DNA from: a virus
Direction: 5' to 3' (one strand)
Virus record (IMG/VR): IMGVR_UViG_3300010232_000155
Length of the DNA: 64,000 nucleotides
Made by a program: the position numbers and the translations under genes
Shown here: positions 40,658-63,205 of the stretch, piece by piece
Layout of the letters: each line of letters opens with the position of its first letter
Numbering within the stretch: the stretch's first letter is position 1
The notes under the pieces: generated by a model
What the model saw: only the letters and a program-made list of their open reading frames with translations
Databases searched by the model: none
What the model was told of the DNA's origin: nothing

Positions 40658-41815
40658 TCAACTAAATTGATCCTCACCAATCGTGATACTTGCAGACTCA
40701 TAGCCATCCTTATTTGCAGTTATCGTGTAATCGCCAATTGGTACGTCTTTGAATACTGCAACTCCATCTTCACCTGCTGACTTACTATCACCAGTTTCTC
40801 CCTTAATACTTACTTGGGCATTGGGAACTGCGTTGGCATTAGGATCTGAAATAACTGCCTTAATATTGCCAAGATCCGGCTCACCATCGTCTTTTTTCTC
40901 CAAGATCAGATTAACCGTCGCAACTGGCCTTCTCGTTCCCTCACCAGTCACGATCTCAAGACCAGTCTCGGATTCTACGTTGGTCGCATAATTCATCACT
41001 GTGGCACGACTCGACCCTGCAAATAAGAGTCCAGCTGGCAAGTGCGTCTCGTCGAATAGTACGGCAGAACCAGAGTCACCTGGGTCACTCATATCAGTCG
41101 TGATGAATTGATCCTTCATCGTAATGACTCCAGGATCGCCAAAGTTAACATCGACACTCACGCTCACTTGTCTGACTTCACCAGTCGTAACACCGGTAGT
41201 ACGACCACTCTTGACAACCACGTCTCCAAGCTCGGGTCTCTCGGGTTCGCCTCGTGGCATCCCGACTGTTACTAGTTCGTTCGTATGCTCGACTTCTTGA
41301 GATGCCCAGGCCACGTCCACGGTAGTACCATCTTCAACTGGAACGTAGCCTGCGAGTGTTGCAGATTGATCATCCACGGTCCCACCATCAGCTGATCCTG
41401 GCTGGATTATAGTGTCTCCCTCTTCGCCCTTGTTGATATTAGCGTAGACGTGATTGTTCGAGGCTGTGTATTGCGTACTGCCATCTGTTAGCACGTATGA
41501 AACAGTGCCAGCAGTAACGTCAACGTGACCGACTGAGACACCACTGACGACTGGCCTGTTCTTCTCCTTGCGACCAGTTTGTGGTTCGGCTAATTGTGAG
41601 ACAACTTCGATAGTAAACTCCTCGCCTTCTTCTACTCGCGTGTTAGTATTTTCTAATTCTTGTGGGAGGCTGAGTGATTCAGCAGTTCCCTCTTCGACTG
41701 TAATAACTACGGCCTCATTGCCATCACCGTCGAGACCAATACCAACAGCGTGTACGTTTTCCTCGTTGAGGAGTGCATCCTCGTATTGTTCTTTTATTTC
41801 TTGTAGTTCAGCCAT
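40658..41815 (-). CDS. Trypsin-like (S1/PA clan) serine protease with N-terminal prodomain and C-terminal Ig/carboxypeptidase-regulatory-like domain
   Basis: SNNHV (His), DVAWA (Asp), SGRTTGVT, PGDSGS (Ser); C-terminal G...F..VP.GDYTITA.K.GY. Confidence 0.85.
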   Translation of the reverse strand: MAELQEIKEQYEDALLNEENVHAVGIGLDGDGNEAVVITVEEGTAESLSLPQELENTNTRVEEGEEFTIEVVSQLAEPQTGRKEKNRPVVSGVSVGHVDVTAGTVSYVLTDGSTQYTASNNHVYANINKGEEGDTIIQPGSADGGTVDDQSATLAGYVPVEDGTTVDVAWASQEVEHTNELVTVGMPRGEPERPELGDVVVKSGRTTGVTTGEVRQVSVSVDVNFGDPGVITMKDQFITTDMSDPGDSGSAVLFDETHLPAGLLFAGSSRATVMNYATNVESETGLEIVTGEGTRRPVATVNLILEKKDDGEPDLGNIKAVISDPNANAVPNAQVSIKGETGDSKSAGEDGVAVFKDVPIGDYTITANKDGYESASITIGEDQFS

Positions 41816-41818
41816 TGA

Positions 41819-41953
41819 TGGGCACAGGGGGATTTGAACCCCCGATCAATTACTTTCTCCCGAGAGTAGGCTGACTGTGACATCTGGTTCTCTCGCGGAA
41901 GTCCTACTCTCGTTAGAAAACAATTGCTCTAGTCCGTGCTGAGCCATGTGCCC
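41819..41953 (-). tRNA. trnR: tRNA-Arg(TCT) with 59-nt canonical 37/38 BHB intron
   Basis: Acceptor GGGCACA/TGTGCCC, D-stem GCTC/GAGC, T-arm GGGGG-TTCAAAT-CCCCC; intron helix CGAGAGTAGG/CCTACTCTCG; two G-U pairs in the anticodon stem; no encoded CCA. Confidence 0.88.
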
Positions 41954-42084: not shown

Positions 42085-42203
42085 TAGTCCCGAGCGGATT
42101 TGAACCGCTGTCGTGAGCTTTCTTCTCAGGCTGATGGCACGCTAGTATGGCAGGGATTATCTGATCCAAAGGCTCATGTGATTGGCCGCTACACCACGGG
42201 ACT
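42085..42203 (-). tRNA. trnQ: tRNA-Gln(TTG) with 46-nt canonical 37/38 BHB intron
   Basis: AGTCCCG/CGGGACT acceptor, TGAGC/GCTCA anticodon stem, CTTT:GAAG central BHB helix, T-arm AGCGG-TTCAAAT-CCGCT. Confidence 0.92.
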
Positions 42204-42366
42204 GAACCACCCAGGATGTCTGGGTGGATTTTTCCGGGCTTGGGATCGACGGGCAGTGATAGGGAGTTGCCAGCTCCTCCTCCAGATCCACGAGCGTGAG
42301 CAGCAGCGCGTGACCTGAACTCAGCAGACCTCATTGCTGGATATTTAACGCCTCCAGCAGGGCAAG

Positions 42367-42541
42367 TGGGATACGAAGGAGTCGAACCTTCGACCTCTCC
42401 TACCGCTGACCTATTATCCCATAATAGCAACCGAGGGCTATCACCCTCCTCGTGAGTACGGTTGCCAGTTCCAGCTCCGTTGCTCCTACGGATCGTGCTG
42501 GGATCGGGATCAAGTTTGCATCCAATGCAAACTGTGATCCC
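42367..42541 (-). ncRNA. tRNA-like RNA (175 nt): intact T-arm and 3' acceptor strand, no recognisable anticodon arm, multi-hairpin insert
   Basis: 3' end AGGTC-GAAGG-TTCGACT-CCTTC-GTATCCC-A; 5' GGGAT(C)AC can pair with GTATCCC; several perfect internal hairpins. Confidence 0.55.
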
Positions 42542-42545
42542 TAAC

Positions 42546-42696
42546 TGGGCCACCTCGGATTTGCACCGAGAATGAGAAGCAACGGTGGGAACTGAGGGGA
42601 ATGACGGACACTTGATCCTCGGGAGTGAATCAGCCTCGGTCATGCTGCTTCTCATTTCTTGAGCCGAGTACTGTTACCAGACTTGGCTAATGGCCC
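42546..42696 (-). ncRNA. tRNA-Leu(CAA)-like RNA (151 nt) with a long insert replacing positions ~38-48
   Basis: Acceptor GGGCCAT/GTGGCCC-A, Leu-like D region, CTCGG-CT-CAA-GA, then a 13-bp helix AATGAGAAGCAGC/GTTGCTTCTCATT abutting the T-arm CTCGG-TGCAAAT-CCGAG. Confidence 0.6.
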
Positions 42697-42729
42697 TGAC
42701 ATACGCCATCGATCCATACGCACGGGGGG

Positions 42730-42737
42730 TACTTAAA
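42730..42737 (-). promoter_or_regulatory. TATA box of the RNA operon
   Basis: TTTAAGTA 34 nt upstream of the first tRNA-like RNA; same TTTAAGTAC core at 63194-63202. Confidence 0.7.
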
Positions 42738-42747
42738 CCCACCTATC

Positions 42748-43629
42748 CTACGATGAGTCAGTCACTGCAAGAGTACGATCTTCAATTACTCGATCAGGAA
42801 CTTTACCGAGTTCACCAGTGGCTGGGAAGCGTGGTGAGATGAACCACGTTGCTTTAACGTCAGTCTCCGTTTGACACACTACTTTCATCGGCACGGCATG
42901 ACCGAAACCGAGCCTGGCTTGCTCGCCAAACACGTTAATATCACTAGTAAGATCCAATGATAATAGTACTTCTGCTCGCTTTTGTTCAGTCGGATCGTCA
43001 ATAGCAACACCCTCCTTGTTGGGTGGAGTCAGGTCACCCCAATTAATTTCATACTCATCAAAATCCTCCCAATGGATAGTTTCTGCTAACTCGTAATCAT
43101 CCCTACTAGAATAAAGATGCAATAAGCCTTCACTGGCAGACATCCAGAAGTGCCCACGATCATCATTCCCATCGAACACGTAACTCTGAGCTTCGGTAAT
43201 GAAGTCCATGATCCAATCATCATCTCCATAAACTTTGATGGGTAAGTCCAAGTTAGGAACAGATTCGGGGATCTGGGCTACGTCACTCACATCTGTCAGT
43301 GGTACTGTATACGTCCTACCAGCAACACTCATCTTAATCTTGTGAACACCGTGACCAAGGTCAATATTGAGTGTTACTGGATCATCAGTATTGGGAATAA
43401 TCCCTTCAATATCCCCAATACGGACACCGATCTCAGTACCTGGATCGACATCGTAGGTTTCCATCGCTGATTCTGGAATCAACGAGGCGTATGCACTGGC
43501 ACCCGATGGGTGTTCTAATTCTTGTATGATCCCGGCTGATTTCAACTTGAACACTGACTCGTCACTATACTGTGCTGCTGCCGCGACGACCTCGTAGAGG
43601 TCTTGCGATTTTTTGATCTGTATTTTCAT
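42748..43629 (-). CDS. pcn: Divergent PCNA sliding clamp
   Basis: DESVFKL...EHPS...L....METY.V.....IGVRI pattern, two-domain length, adjacent to PolB. Confidence 0.7.
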   Translation of the reverse strand: MKIQIKKSQDLYEVVAAAAQYSDESVFKLKSAGIIQELEHPSGASAYASLIPESAMETYDVDPGTEIGVRIGDIEGIIPNTDDPVTLNIDLGHGVHKIKMSVAGRTYTVPLTDVSDVAQIPESVPNLDLPIKVYGDDDWIMDFITEAQSYVFDGNDDRGHFWMSASEGLLHLYSSRDDYELAETIHWEDFDEYEINWGDLTPPNKEGVAIDDPTEQKRAEVLLSLDLTSDINVFGEQARLGFGHAVPMKVVCQTETDVKATWFISPRFPATGELGKVPDRVIEDRTLAVTDSS

Positions 43630-43718: not shown

Positions 43719-46700
43719 TTACCAGTCAGCAAGTGATGGTTGATCTGGTTCATCATCGTCATCATCCTCCTCCCCTATTGTCTTATTATTATTTATCTCA
43801 GACAAGTCAACTGTTTCTATCTCCTTGTTATCGTCATTATCTGTAATATCTTCCTCGTCGTTTTCCACGTCCAAGTCGAACTCGTCAAATACTGAATCTC
43901 TATTATCCTGATCTGTAAACGTGTCGATCACTTCGGGTTCTTCCTCGTCCTCTTCTGGTGGTACGTCTCGCTCCCAGTCAATAGTATCGACAGCATCCTC
44001 GTTTTCAGTACCATTACTAATAAAGTCATCATCATCTGCGATAGTCTCCTCCGTGTTAGAATCAAAACTGCCTATCGAGGCTTGATCTTGTCCAGTTCTG
44101 ATTTCCTCCCATAACCATTCAGTACACTCGATAATTCTCGATAATGGGCCATCGATCTGTATATCTAAGTACTTATCAAAGTCAATCGTGACCGTATCTG
44201 GCACATTGTTCTGATTCATCCAGACTATGAATTTTGAATCCTTTAGAGTTGGTGCTGGTGGATACTCTCCACCAACACGCTCAACATAGATGCCCTTCGG
44301 CTTATCTCCGGGTTGTATCTGCTCACCAAGATGCTCGTTAGCATACTCTGCACCTCGAACATGCTTGGTCTTACTATCGTACTGGTCAAACGCACGACCG
44401 ATGCCACCAGCGATGCCTAACTCGTCATATTCAAATGCTAAGTTCTTGATCTTCTCAATCCTGTCACGGACTAGATCGGATACTTCTTGTTTTTCAGCAC
44501 CCATCAGTATTGCTTCTATCAAGTCCATTTGTAGGTTCCTGGCAACGTCACTGTAGTCAGATCGTTGGAACTCGAAACCAACGATGTCAATATCATCGAC
44601 GTGTTTTCCCTCTTTCCAAATGATATGACCAGCATAGCGTTTCTTCTTACCAGCTTGGATGAATATCCTGTAAAGTTTCTCGAACTCCATTTCAAACCAA
44701 TGCTCATCTGTATTAAGACGTTCTCTAGCAAACTCATCATAGGCCTCGTTAATTACTTTCTCCATCTCAAAAGAAAGTTCGATAACTTCAGTAGCAGTAT
44801 TAGTATCAGTAAATTCAACCATAACGCTGTCAGTGTCTCCGTATATGACCTCATAGCCCATATCACTGACTTTCTCTTGGGTAAACTTGATCACTTCTCG
44901 ACCAGTTGCTGTCACGGCAGCTGCATTATCTTGATCGTATAATCGGAAACGATCCCAACCGAGTAACCCGTACAAAGTATTACCAGTCCATTGGAATTTA
45001 CCATTACGACCTGCGAGTACAGTATAATTACCTCTCACAGTTATACAGTATACTTGACCGTCATGATCTTTAGTTTCTACTTCTTCTTTTCTGAATGAGC
45101 CACTATTTCTGTTAAGATATATCGTCCAAAAATCATCATCTTGCGATACAGAGGGTTTAAATCCGCACTTGACAGATAATTTTACAAGATCCTCTTTCAT
45201 CTGATCGCTTGTAGTACTGTATGCATAGGAATCATTCCCGTGTTGACGACCGTTAGCTCTGATCAATACATCAAGCAGGTGCATCAAGATTGTACCATCT
45301 ATCTGGTTATCAAATATATACTCTGGTATCTTTCTATTTTTTGATCCTAAATAGCTGGGCATCTCCGTATCTTTTGGTTCTGCAATAGTTTGGTCTACAA
45401 AAATATCGTAAACTAGTCTATTACTTATAATAATATCATCGTCACTCGTACCATACTGAATACCAAGTCTATCAAGCAGAGTTTTAATTTTACTCGTCTC
45501 ATAATCATCTGTCCGAGTCATATTTATTCTCTTATATTCACCTCCAGTTGATTTTTCCCCATGATAAAATGATCCTCTTGCGATAATCCAACCAGTTAAC
45601 TTGAGCCAGTCATAAAGATCATACCTTAGATAGATACTGCCTTTATTTTTATCAGGCTGTATCTGAATAATATCTGCCTTTTCATACAGTTCTTCTCCGT
45701 ACTTCCAATATAGATCAAGATCAGTAAGTAAGTACTGATTGCGTCGGTCATAATAGGATAGAGCATTTTCAAGTTCCGATGGTAAATTAGCTTTAAATGT
45801 GCTGCCATGCGCTGTCGGTGTTATCCAGAGCATTGCCTCATCCACGAAGTTAACAATATCCACCACTGTTTCAGCACGTCCGTCAAACTTATTATGGAGT
45901 GGTATATTATAATCGTATCCCCTGCTGAGATCATCATAATGTTCCATGAAGGAACCAGTATGTGAGTCACTATTTACAAACATTCTATGACTAGGAGTAA
46001 TCATAAGATCAGTATGTTGAGTCTGAATATGCTCTAATTCCCTATGCAGATTTTCTTGCCTAGTCGTATCAATCACATCCCTGATCTCAACATCATGAGT
46101 ATCTGGATTAATAGTATAAACCTCATCTCCAACTTCAATGTCTTTAATATTCCGTATTCCATCTGGCGTAACTACATCAGTATCTCCACTAAAACAGTTC
46201 ATAATTACCTTCACCGCACGCTGCTGCATATCGAACTTATGATACTGTCTTGATCCAGCTGATTGGGAATTACGCTTTTCCTTTAACAAATCCCGCTCAT
46301 CAAGTAGATCATCAATCATCTGCTTAACGATTGAATCCTTCTCCGTCGTATATGAAACACCATTCGGAGCTGTAATCTCACCATCAGGATCCTTAGTACG
46401 CGGTCCCGCGTTGAGCGTCTCCATCGACATCGGATAGAGAGACTTCAGATCCAGAACTGAAATCATTTCCTTAACTTCAGTAGCCGGATCAAACACTTCA
46501 GCTCCTTCAAACTCCTCATCACCACCTTCCACTGTCCTAGACGATGGGAGTACGAACCTCCCATTACACGTTCTCAACACGTAAATATCAGCAGCCTTGG
46601 AATAATCAACAACCTCACCGAGCCTACCACCGACAAAATTACAGACCTCCTCATAAAAAGCGACAATATCACGCTCCTCCTCTAGTGCAACTGTAAGATA

Positions 46701-47735
46701 CACGTCCCTGATGTTATACTCTAAAAGTGTACTAAGATCATCGTGATACATCGTATTGATGGATTGTCCTTCTTTCTCCAGCTTGCCAATATCTAATTCT
46801 TCCTGGGCTACGTCATCGAGACTAAACGAGTCAAGCTCGCTAAACTCTAGATTCTTATACCCATCGAGCATGTCGAACACTGCAATACCCTTGATCTTCC
46901 CAATAGTCCTCCCGTAAAACGTATCATCATACGCAGTTCCTAATGGCGAAAGCGTATCTGACTCAATGCCATCTAACGTTTCACACCTGTTAATCAGATA
47001 GACCGCGTCGAACTCTTTAAAATTCCATCCAGTAAGTACATCAGGCCAATGCTCATCAAGATACTCTGCAAATGCTTCAAGCATTTTAACCTCGTCATCA
47101 AAGATCTCAAGATTAACATCATCAACATACTGCGTCTCAATAGCAGGTTCACGTCCTTTCTTCTCGAACAAGTAGACATGATACTCTCCCGTAAACGAAT
47201 CATAGAAAGAGATGCATACTATTGGTTTAATCGCTTCTTGCTCGTCGGGGAAACCACCCTCATCATCGACTTCAATATCGCAAAAGAGCATTCTCGTCTC
47301 AGTAGAGTACTCGATCTTGTCTATATCCTCCAGTGGGACTTCCTGTCCTGCTACATCATCAATCTCGACACCACGATAAATGCCAGTATCCAGGGAGAAC
47401 CTATTTGGGAACAGGATGTCAGCCTCGTAATGCTCGAAACGATCCCTGACTTGAGGCACGTCACCGGGCATGTACGTGTAAACCCTGCTCAATTCCCTCC
47501 CCCTGATCGAAGTATATCCATCTTCGACTCGATCAACCAGGTGGTGATTCAATAAGTCAGTATCAACTTGCTCGCTCGGTACGCAGAAGTAAGGGTCGAC
47601 TTCACGATTCTCAAGATGGATCCTATTATCATCTTCATCTCGTCCGATCAGGTTCATCACTGGTCGATCTCGACCATTACGCTGTTCACGAGTATAGTCT
47701 AACTTCTTAAGTTCTACTCTCATAATCTTCAACAC
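43719..47735 (-). CDS. polB: Family B DNA polymerase with intein and acidic C-terminal tail
   Basis: Exo I DIE, motif A DLKSLYP, motif B KVIMN/TLYG, motif C YGDTDS; tail ends QPSLADW (PIP-like). Confidence 0.97.
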   Translation of the reverse strand: MLKIMRVELKKLDYTREQRNGRDRPVMNLIGRDEDDNRIHLENREVDPYFCVPSEQVDTDLLNHHLVDRVEDGYTSIRGRELSRVYTYMPGDVPQVRDRFEHYEADILFPNRFSLDTGIYRGVEIDDVAGQEVPLEDIDKIEYSTETRMLFCDIEVDDEGGFPDEQEAIKPIVCISFYDSFTGEYHVYLFEKKGREPAIETQYVDDVNLEIFDDEVKMLEAFAEYLDEHWPDVLTGWNFKEFDAVYLINRCETLDGIESDTLSPLGTAYDDTFYGRTIGKIKGIAVFDMLDGYKNLEFSELDSFSLDDVAQEELDIGKLEKEGQSINTMYHDDLSTLLEYNIRDVYLTVALEEERDIVAFYEEVCNFVGGRLGEVVDYSKAADIYVLRTCNGRFVLPSSRTVEGGDEEFEGAEVFDPATEVKEMISVLDLKSLYPMSMETLNAGPRTKDPDGEITAPNGVSYTTEKDSIVKQMIDDLLDERDLLKEKRNSQSAGSRQYHKFDMQQRAVKVIMNCFSGDTDVVTPDGIRNIKDIEVGDEVYTINPDTHDVEIRDVIDTTRQENLHRELEHIQTQHTDLMITPSHRMFVNSDSHTGSFMEHYDDLSRGYDYNIPLHNKFDGRAETVVDIVNFVDEAMLWITPTAHGSTFKANLPSELENALSYYDRRNQYLLTDLDLYWKYGEELYEKADIIQIQPDKNKGSIYLRYDLYDWLKLTGWIIARGSFYHGEKSTGGEYKRINMTRTDDYETSKIKTLLDRLGIQYGTSDDDIIISNRLVYDIFVDQTIAEPKDTEMPSYLGSKNRKIPEYIFDNQIDGTILMHLLDVLIRANGRQHGNDSYAYSTTSDQMKEDLVKLSVKCGFKPSVSQDDDFWTIYLNRNSGSFRKEEVETKDHDGQVYCITVRGNYTVLAGRNGKFQWTGNTLYGLLGWDRFRLYDQDNAAAVTATGREVIKFTQEKVSDMGYEVIYGDTDSVMVEFTDTNTATEVIELSFEMEKVINEAYDEFARERLNTDEHWFEMEFEKLYRIFIQAGKKKRYAGHIIWKEGKHVDDIDIVGFEFQRSDYSDVARNLQMDLIEAILMGAEKQEVSDLVRDRIEKIKNLAFEYDELGIAGGIGRAFDQYDSKTKHVRGAEYANEHLGEQIQPGDKPKGIYVERVGGEYPPAPTLKDSKFIVWMNQNNVPDTVTIDFDKYLDIQIDGPLSRIIECTEWLWEEIRTGQDQASIGSFDSNTEETIADDDDFISNGTENEDAVDTIDWERDVPPEEDEEEPEVIDTFTDQDNRDSVFDEFDLDVENDEEDITDNDDNKEIETVDLSEINNNKTIGEEDDDDDEPDQPSLADW
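44979..46196 (-). mobile_element. Intein (406 aa) in polymerase motif B with degenerate LAGLIDADG-type endonuclease
   Basis: KVIMN|CFSGDT...GRNGKFQWTGN|TLYG. Confidence 0.92.
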
Positions 47736-63140: not shown

Positions 63141-63205
63141 GTTTAGCCTAACTCAGGATTTGAACCTGACGTTAGACACTACGATCCGGAGGTACTTAAA
63201 ACCCC

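Follow-up and report, generated by a model that had tools for sequence, protein, structure and literature searches.

Decoding-dead derivatives of tRNA genes as probable t-element-like processing tags in a virus-like element from a halophilic community

A 64-kb stretch of DNA from IMG/VR virus record IMGVR_UViG_3300010232_000155 (the window) encodes two neighbouring elements, RNA1 and RNA2, which a preliminary description had presented as functional mimics of transfer RNA (tRNA) with large structured inserts in place of the anticodon or variable region. The reading favoured here, with a probability of about 0.58, is that both are decoding-dead deletion derivatives of tRNA genes, kept as processing tags resembling the t-elements of haloarchaea, and that the arm which RNA1 retains from a former intron is a passenger. 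Alignment traces RNA1 and a 54-nucleotide (nt) module within RNA2 to ordinary viral tRNA genes from which segments were deleted; in origin both are decayed tRNAs. The elements occupy a 930-nt gap between a 293-amino-acid (aa) open reading frame (ORF; 42748-43629) and a 385-aa S1-protease/CarboxypepD_reg gene (40658-41815), and all coordinates at this locus refer to the minus strand. The order of the cluster is promoter, disrupted tRNA(CAU) gene, spacer, disrupted tRNA-Val gene, spacer, tRNA-Gln, spacer, tRNA-Arg.

For comparison, contigs encoding relatives of the 293-aa ORF, of which only three were found among 5.8 billion proteins, were combined with contigs reached via the neighbouring protease. 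One of these, L001, represents a sister strain (protein identity 92-95%) in which both elements are present and the order is unchanged; the other contigs are likewise cited by handle. RNA1, which retains the arm of a former bulge–helix–bulge (BHB) intron, and the motif that precedes it comprise the following parts:

42728..42740, minus strand: B recognition element (BRE)/TATA-like motif GGGTTTAAGTACC, about 31 nt upstream of RNA1
42546..42696, minus strand: RNA1, 151 nt, an unspliceable derivative of an intron-bearing tRNA(CAU), as judged by sequence, fold and homology to L003, L030 and L035
42696-42690, minus strand: RNA1 acceptor 5′ strand
42689-42669, minus strand: RNA1 D remnant
42668-42657, minus strand: RNA1 anticodon-stem 5′ strand and loop
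42656-42644, minus strand: RNA1 helix 5′ strand
42643-42584, minus strand: RNA1 apical ex-intron
42583-42571, minus strand: RNA1 helix 3′ strand
42570-42554, minus strand: RNA1 T-arm
42553-42546, minus strand: RNA1 acceptor 3′ strand and discriminator A

RNA1 is read from 42696 to 42546. As first described, its acceptor stem has 7 base pairs (bp; GGGCCAU/GUGGCCC) with discriminator A, its 13-bp helix (AAUGAGAAGCAGC/GUUGCUUCUCAUU) begins directly after the anticodon loop and abuts the T-stem, and the BHB partner is missing, the 3′ BHB half and positions 38-48 being truly absent. The T-arm had been called perfect; it does have a 5-bp T-stem (CUCGG-UGCAAAU-CCGAG), but G takes the place of U at position 55, so the arm departs somewhat from the canonical form. 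The 5′ half, which ends CUCGG CUCAAGA, is tRNA-like and carries CAA at the anticodon position, but the leucine identity proposed for it is wrong, because the anticodon drifts: no anticodon is conserved among the orthologues, which have CAA in the window, CAT in L001 and CAU in the intact relatives. Minimum-free-energy folding of RNA1 gives a four-way junction (-64.3 kcal/mol; z = -6.1 versus shuffles, with 0/200 shuffles as stable). The pyrimidine run reported in the loop exists and is unpaired in this fold; it is not conserved in L001.

Intact tRNA(CAU) genes with a long BHB intron are found at L003:2848-3000, L030:3228-3368 and L035:8348-8496. Their acceptor sequence is GGGCCAU, as in RNA1, and the anticodon stem CUCGG/CCGAG matches in L030 and L035. 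The BHB is perfect in all three, comprising stem, CUCA, UAA and a long helix, followed by UGAG, AAA or UAA, stem, a 5-nt variable loop and the T-arm. In the alignment, RNA1 keeps everything through the intron helix, and ~15 nt are gone, comprising the UGAG strand and the bulge together with positions 39-43 and most of 44-48. RNA1 descends from an intron-bearing tRNA(CAU) by deletion of these ~15 nt, which took away the 3′ BHB half as well as the 3′ side of the anticodon stem and the greater part of the variable loop; the ex-intron helix has come to abut the T-arm, leaving the splicing endonuclease without a site. Like archaeal pre-tRNAs with a BHB at 37/38, RNA1 keeps the 5′ exon, the 5′ BHB half (stem, CUCA and 3-nt bulge) and the long intron helix. 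Unlike them it has lost the 3′ BHB half; it therefore cannot be spliced, and its final form is the unspliced RNA. A C-rich intron loop is also present in L003 and is therefore an inherited trait of RNA1.

RNA2 had been described as a single RNA of 175 nt (42541 to 42367) without an anticodon arm. This extent does not hold, as folding gives three hairpins and a 54-nt unit and the proposed 5′ strand does not close: GGGAUCA at 42541 forms a local hairpin with UGAUCCC, and only 5/7 pairs are possible with the 3′ strand of RNA2. The absence of an anticodon arm stands for the 54-nt tRNA-like part. The region is divided as follows:

42421..42545, minus strand: spacer with mutually independent hairpins at 42541-42506, 42501-42471 and 42467-42425 (from folds)
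42367..42420, minus strand: RNA2 module, 54 nt, tRNA-Val-derived and without an anticodon arm (from alignment to the L002 tRNA-Val and the minihelix scan)

The upstream 121 nt, the 5′ two-thirds of the proposed RNA2, are ordinary spacer hairpins, and this spacer contains the GGAGCTGG...CAAC / TATCACTG-type leader motif common to inter-tRNA spacers of the window, L002 and L003. Its first hairpin is retained in L001, where the inner stem is different and longer. The module itself is a self-contained fold unit (GGGAUAA...GUAUCCCA) consisting of an acceptor stem GGGAUAA/GUAUCCC (6/7 bp), a D-arm remnant, the variable loop AGGUC, a perfect T-arm and discriminator A. Its alignment with the intact tRNA-Val(UAC) at L002:4630-4701 shows a sole difference, one 18-nt gap that deletes the anticodon arm. 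The L002 gene stands behind the same conserved promoter, in the same position, in a cluster ordered promoter, Val, spacer, disrupted Gln, spacer, Arg. Clean loss of the 18-nt anticodon arm accounts for the descent of the RNA2 module from such a tRNA-Val(UAC).

Between the window and L001, the acceptor stems and T-arms of both elements differ at 2/64 positions, both of them variable T-loop positions, and 0/48 stem nucleotides have changed. The exons of the genuine tRNA-Gln and tRNA-Arg differ at 5/149 positions, and a neutral pool of spacers, Gln/Arg introns and the RNA1 apical arm at 97/576. The top halves are thus distinct from the neutral pool (Fisher p = 0.0017) and show no difference from real tRNA exons. 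The D/anticodon remnants (7/55 changes) do not differ from the pool (p = 0.57). The apical arm of RNA1 has 13/55 changes and a 9-nt indel, and in the apical domain 11/13 changed pairs are broken, while the four-way architecture overall is retained in L001. Since the top halves are conserved and the rest changes at the spacer rate, selection appears, on this strain comparison, to be limited to the acceptor/T-arm half, which is the half read by RNase P, tRNase Z and the CCA enzyme, and to act on nothing else. Two single substitutions concern pairing: in strain X1, U7.G66 of RNA1 is replaced by U7-A66, and in L001 a C->T change allows the orphan anticodon-stem strand and the D strand to form a perfect 8-bp hairpin.

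Random decay among homologues, which had been named as a possible refutation, is not what was found, the acceptor/T-arm halves being as conserved as real tRNA exons. The same figures, together with the unchanged stem nucleotides and the 8-bp hairpin of L001, argue against a neutral origin of the present state, in which both elements would be tRNA pseudogenes, transcribed and trimmed because the minihelix happens to be intact, with no selected role and heading for deletion. Such neutral relics are considered unlikely. They would fit the decay of the D-stem, the anticodon and T-loop position 55, as well as the unconserved apical domain of RNA1; the window, L001 and X1 are also closely related, so that little time is needed for persistence, and deletions may plausibly concentrate in long intron hairpins, which would account for lesions in the anticodon region.

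RNA1 is also represented among assembled RNA. Two runs of one halite metatranscriptome study each yielded a contig that is unspliced and 100% identical to the window, one of 153 nt (42546-42696) and one of 152 nt (42547-42696), with 1-2 extra letters at the ends, and both runs contain all sampled words of RNA1. The contigs stop at the predicted G1 (42696) and at the discriminator (42546/7), although contigs alone cannot prove ends. Positions at which X1 varies within RNA1 (42553, 42615) leave the contigs unbroken, so branching at strain variants does not explain where they stop. Both runs are very small, and the flanking viral genes were not assembled there. In a third run the flanking ORFs are covered, and a 260-nt contig (42107-42364) starts 2-3 nt past the 3′ end of the 54-nt module, an end that likewise is not proof of cleavage. 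As a separate observation, this contig indicates that spacer 2 and unspliced pre-tRNA-Gln exist as RNA. The preliminary description had made its case depend on discrete transcripts, and for RNA1 unspliced contigs with the predicted ends are now found in two runs. As a guess, the libraries may be those of Gelsinger et al. 2020 (PMC7002113), a study in which SMARTer stranded libraries were made and the RNA was checked for DNA by RT-PCR (reverse-transcription polymerase chain reaction).

The TATA box reported ahead of the RNAs corresponds to the BRE/TATA-like motif, which is probably a promoter. The exact GGGTTTAAGTACC motif has two occurrences in 64 kb, one before RNA1 and the other at 63203-63191 before a minihelix, and L001 and L002 keep it ahead of their own tRNA clusters. 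Transcription would start from this conserved promoter, and the intact acceptor/T-arm half would be cleaved by RNase P and tRNase Z, as the anatomy of both elements suggests and as the contig ends support in the case of RNA1. Neither spliced nor decoded, RNA1 would accumulate as a stable 151-nt RNA, consistent with its contigs in RNA libraries. The selected role would most likely be punctuation, the setting of end points for adjacent RNAs of the tRNA cluster, and the ex-intron arm of RNA1 would be carried as a passenger.

The same RNA observations bear on whether RNA1, and perhaps the 54-nt module, might instead be selected as a stable RNA, a trans-acting tRNA mimic or natural scaffold serving, for instance, as a guide or as a decoy for nucleases or for enzymes that target tRNA. 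The tRNA top half would then provide maturation and stability, and the working part would be the ex-intron arm or the mimicry itself. This is regarded as quite unlikely. It is consistent with the occurrence of RNA1 as a discrete species in very small runs without assembled flanking viral genes, with its very stable compact fold and with the four-way architecture kept in L001; a second tRNA body with a long structured insert, at L002:4856-5095, points the same way, and fast loop evolution would, speculatively, suit an arms race. It is hard to reconcile with the differences in insert sequence and inner pairing between such close strains. A search of the 64-kb window for an antisense target of the pyrimidine-rich loop of RNA1 found none, and the insert holds no C/D-box or other known motif by inspection and Rfam; a C/D-box guide RNA was considered, and inspection found no properly arranged box C/D pair. 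There is no evidence of CCA addition or aminoacylation, and RNA2 is without RNA support. Among the roles first listed for the elements, processing tags are therefore favoured by the data, whereas nothing supports decoys or guides: the loop of the insert is not kept in L001, and the window offers it no complementary target.

It could also be supposed that the elements are real tRNAs in disguise, made functional by splicing of a non-canonical, multiple or trans kind, as in multi-intron, split or permuted genes. In the whole window Rfam recognises two tRNAs, on the minus strand at 41819-41953 and 42085-42203, each with a large insert and 48.2 bits. RNA1 and RNA2 gave no tRNA match to RF00005 at the 29-bit gathering threshold or at E<=10 in a 1.2-kb search, and at both settings no transfer-messenger RNA (tmRNA) or other credible family; the best non-tRNA matches were plastid untranslated-region models on the wrong strand, at chance level. 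ARAGORN at default settings (tRNA and tmRNA) reported 0 genes in the window, and with introns allowed it found only the Gln and Arg genes. Calls on RNA1 and RNA2 at relaxed settings were mutually inconsistent and were rejected, one of them being a Leu(caa) with a 234-nt 'intron' that merged the two elements. A BHB scan recovered a canonical motif in each genuine tRNA that has an intron; within RNA1 and RNA2 it found none.

Rescue was tested by submitting every single-deletion product of 66-95 nt to ARAGORN at default stringency, and for RNA1 also all three-exon products in which the first 36-38 nt and the last 25 nt were left in place. No tRNA was called among 6030 constructs of L001 RNA1 or 2385 of RNA2 (0/6030 and 0/2385). 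In the window, RNA1 contains two internal CCGAG copies that could pair with the orphan CUCGG, and some three-exon constructs were accepted; these calls required two arbitrary cuts using the CCGAG copies, and the introns so defined have no BHB. As a positive control, a second element of L003 that Rfam had missed was spliced at its strong BHB and gave a default ARAGORN tRNA with anticodon CUA, which shows that this virus group does contain cryptic tRNAs. In the search for a trans partner, UGAG-NNN-CCGAG occurs 12 times in the 64-kb window against 14 expected, which is not above chance, and no exact copy is present. Under a split or permuted model, the BHB matches that bridge RNA1 and RNA2 are weak (H2 = 3 bp), and L001 has none. 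A multi-intron model yielding ordinary tRNAs had been put forward as the outcome that would overturn the initial proposal; no one- or two-intron rescue was obtained in both strains. Hidden tRNAs of this kind are very improbable, given also that the anticodon varies between strains and that the RNA found in nature is the full unspliced 151 nt. An origin of the tRNA fragments as attP remnants was discarded, as each element has both acceptor strands.

The view that these are functional mimics and not simply decayed tRNAs can accordingly be kept in part. The conserved top half, the discrete RNA and the failure of rescue agree with it; the origin by decay and the drift of the remnants do not.

The L003 control element lies at L003:3004-3174, after tRNA(CAU). 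Its BHB helices have 6 and 10 bp, its intron is ~100 nt, and its CUA anticodon is amber-reading and Pyl-like. Amber recoding in L003 was considered; TAG ends 2/10 called genes, so there is no sign of it on this small contig.

Elements reduced to an acceptor stem joined by a short linker to a T-arm were sought by scanning 119 kb of the window and its relatives. The scan gave 11 matches, against 0.6 in shuffles. Matches within real tRNAs aside, these were a 33-nt minihelix of the window, the RNA2 module of both the window and L001, four elements of related contigs and one weak match (56006-55955) that lies within a coding ORF of the window and is probably false. The minihelices are:

63145-63177, minus strand: 33-nt minihelix with a 7-bp acceptor-like stem, 1 nt and a perfect T-arm with loop TTCAAAT (minihelix scan)
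L027:695-736: armless minihelix, 41-42 nt (minihelix scan)
L030:5352-5311, minus strand: armless minihelix, 41-42 nt (minihelix scan)
L032:83-124: armless minihelix, 41-42 nt (minihelix scan)
L032:4384-4424: armless minihelix, 41-42 nt (minihelix scan)

The four in relatives have an acceptor stem of 6-7 bp, a linker of 9-11 nt and a T-arm, and lie in short gaps; they and the 33-nt minihelix of the window all lie between genes, on the sense strand of their neighbours. The T-loop of L032:4384-4424, TGCAATT, equals the unusual T-loop of L001 RNA1. The minihelix of the window (63177-63145) follows the second copy of the promoter motif (63191-63203, minus strand) and precedes the ATG of a 100-aa ORF by 5 nt, where it may act as an RNase P/tRNase Z site that produces a near-leaderless mRNA. 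The recurrence of armless minihelices in several relatives is a further point against neutral relics. A bolder idea, considered decidedly doubtful, is that a lineage of viruses of halophilic archaea has turned its tRNA genes into a toolkit of tRNA-derived tags. Its stages would lead from an intron-bearing tRNA to the unspliceable RNA1, then to the anticodon-less 54-nt module and finally to armless minihelices of 33-42 nt between protein genes; RNA1 would be a selected noncoding RNA on a natural tRNA scaffold, with a fast-evolving ex-intron arm serving in trans as decoy or guide in the conflict between virus and host.

The element at L002:4856-5095 is a second, independent tRNA body with a large insert. 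It has a Gln-type body in which acceptor, D-arm, anticodon stem, variable loop and T-arm are intact; the anticodon stem extends as a 14-bp helix into an insert of ~140 nt, and there is no anticodon loop and no BHB.

Several points weigh against the interpretation of RNA1 and the RNA2 module as retained processing tags. The conservation test is a single pairwise comparison with one sister sequence; a third strain (run X1) has diverged by only ~4% and adds no power, its two top-half changes being structure-compatible. On the RNA side there are assembled contigs, all from one study and low in depth (2.5 and 7.7), from which strand, CCA status and abundance cannot be read, and a search of the largest RNA run (X2) found no RNA1 contig. 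The G55 of the RNA1 T-loop might weaken recognition, and the downstream tRNAs have TATA-like boxes of their own, so punctuation may be dispensable. The minihelix scan detects only T-arm-bearing elements, so ascertainment accounts in part for the impression that the top half is never lost. Finally, the importance for the virus of processing at the RNA1 and RNA2 sites is hypothetical.

Haloarchaeal t-elements are the closest known kind. In Haloferax, these tRNA-like structures are substrates of RNase P and tRNase Z, and one sets the 5′ end of 5S rRNA (PMC4326828; PMC3296008); for the t-element upstream of 5S rRNA in Haloferax volcanii, PMC4326828 cites Hoelzle et al. 2008 and 2012. RNA1 (7 + 5 bp) and the RNA2 module (6 + 5 bp), each with discriminator A, share with t-elements an acceptor stem stacked on a T-arm and the lack of decoding. 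The halophilic archaeal setting is also shared, and t-element cleavage defines the ends of neighbouring RNAs. In contrast to t-elements, the present elements are virus-encoded, and their descent is traceable to an intron-bearing tRNA(CAU) and to tRNA-Val; RNA1 also has an 86-nt ex-intron arm and accumulates, and cleavage of both elements by RNase P and tRNase Z is predicted.

The comparison with tmRNA made at the outset is apt as regards architecture, with acceptor stem and T-arm around a large insert, but goes no further: the ARAGORN tmRNA search and Rfam were negative, RNA1 and RNA2 have no tag reading frame, pseudoknots or alanine identity pair, and tmRNA is a bacterial system. In the engineered 'tRNA scaffold', a structured RNA is placed where the anticodon region would be, giving precise end maturation and nuclease resistance. 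RNA1 similarly displays a foreign structured RNA on a tRNA body, but it is natural and arose by deletion, not design. The TMERs (tRNA–microRNA-encoded RNAs) of murine gammaherpesvirus 68 consist of viral tRNA-like RNAs followed by hairpins, from which they are separated by tRNase Z. They too are virus-encoded, non-aminoacylated tRNA-like units directly before stable hairpins, with the tRNA-like part as processing signal; they differ in their eukaryotic pol III/microRNA context and in the full cloverleaf of their viral tRNAs, and there is no evolutionary relation.

The locus offers an evolutionary snapshot of how tRNA-like processing elements may arise, when an intron-bearing tRNA loses its splice site, or a tRNA its anticodon arm, and the half read by RNase P and tRNase Z is kept. 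If the punctuation role is true, t-elements, so far described in Haloferax cells, also shape the transcripts of archaeal viruses. Elements of the RNA1 and RNA2 type are missed by standard tRNA finders, which matters for annotation. RNA1 is moreover a natural, abundant-enough, unspliceable look-alike of a pre-tRNA, and could be used to ask what becomes of such RNAs in archaeal cells.

DNA and RNA near-identical to the window, which has a G+C content of ~44%, occur only in metagenomes and metatranscriptomes of halite nodules, and the window is therefore regarded as a virus-like element of a halophilic community. Further relatives were sought with little return: a phage collection gave no match, IMG/VR searched by protein and by DNA pattern held nothing close, a protease-profile search of IMG/VR returned only distant proteases (27-45% identity), and a scan of JGI metagenomes for the 5′ pattern of RNA1 brought up nothing but unrelated cellular tRNAs. 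Many genes of the window are without database matches. A family-B DNA polymerase with an intein is encoded at 43719-47735 on the minus strand; the Hint/intein domain splits this PolB at about residues 511-903, and the PolB of L002 (882 aa) has no intein.

The two genuine tRNAs of the cluster are:

42085..42203, minus strand: tRNA-Gln(UUG) with a 46-nt BHB intron (42165-42120); Rfam 48.2 bits, BHB conserved in L001
41819..41953, minus strand: tRNA-Arg(UCU) with a 59-nt BHB intron (41913-41855); Rfam 48.2 bits, BHB conserved in L001

The BHB of tRNA-Gln reads TGAGC CTTT GGA TCAG...CTGA GAAG AAA GCTCA, and its exons show 0 changes relative to L001. That of tRNA-Arg reads CAATTGT TTTC TAA CGAGAGTAGG ... 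CCTACTCTCG GGAG AAA GTAATTG, with an intron helix of 10 bp, and intronless UCU orthologues are present in L002 and L003. The identities Arg(UCU) and Gln(UUG) rest on BHB geometry and intronless orthologues; the labels assigned by ARAGORN, Leu(taa) for the Arg gene and Stop(tta) for the Gln gene, are wrong because the intron borders are misplaced. The inter-tRNA spacers (42366-42204 and 42084-41954, minus strand; L002 ~4840; L003 ~3270 and 3585) contain motifs common across the virus family, namely a hairpin and then a TATA-like box just 3′ of each tRNA, and a second motif, a GGAGCTGG..CAAC..TATCACTGC-type leader. The 5′ exon of tRNA-Gln (window 42165-42204) has ~90-92% identity to many DNA and RNA contigs from the halite community that are unrelated, far deeper and differently flanked, one of the RNA contigs being intronless. 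These are presumably cellular tRNA-Gln genes, possibly including that of the host.

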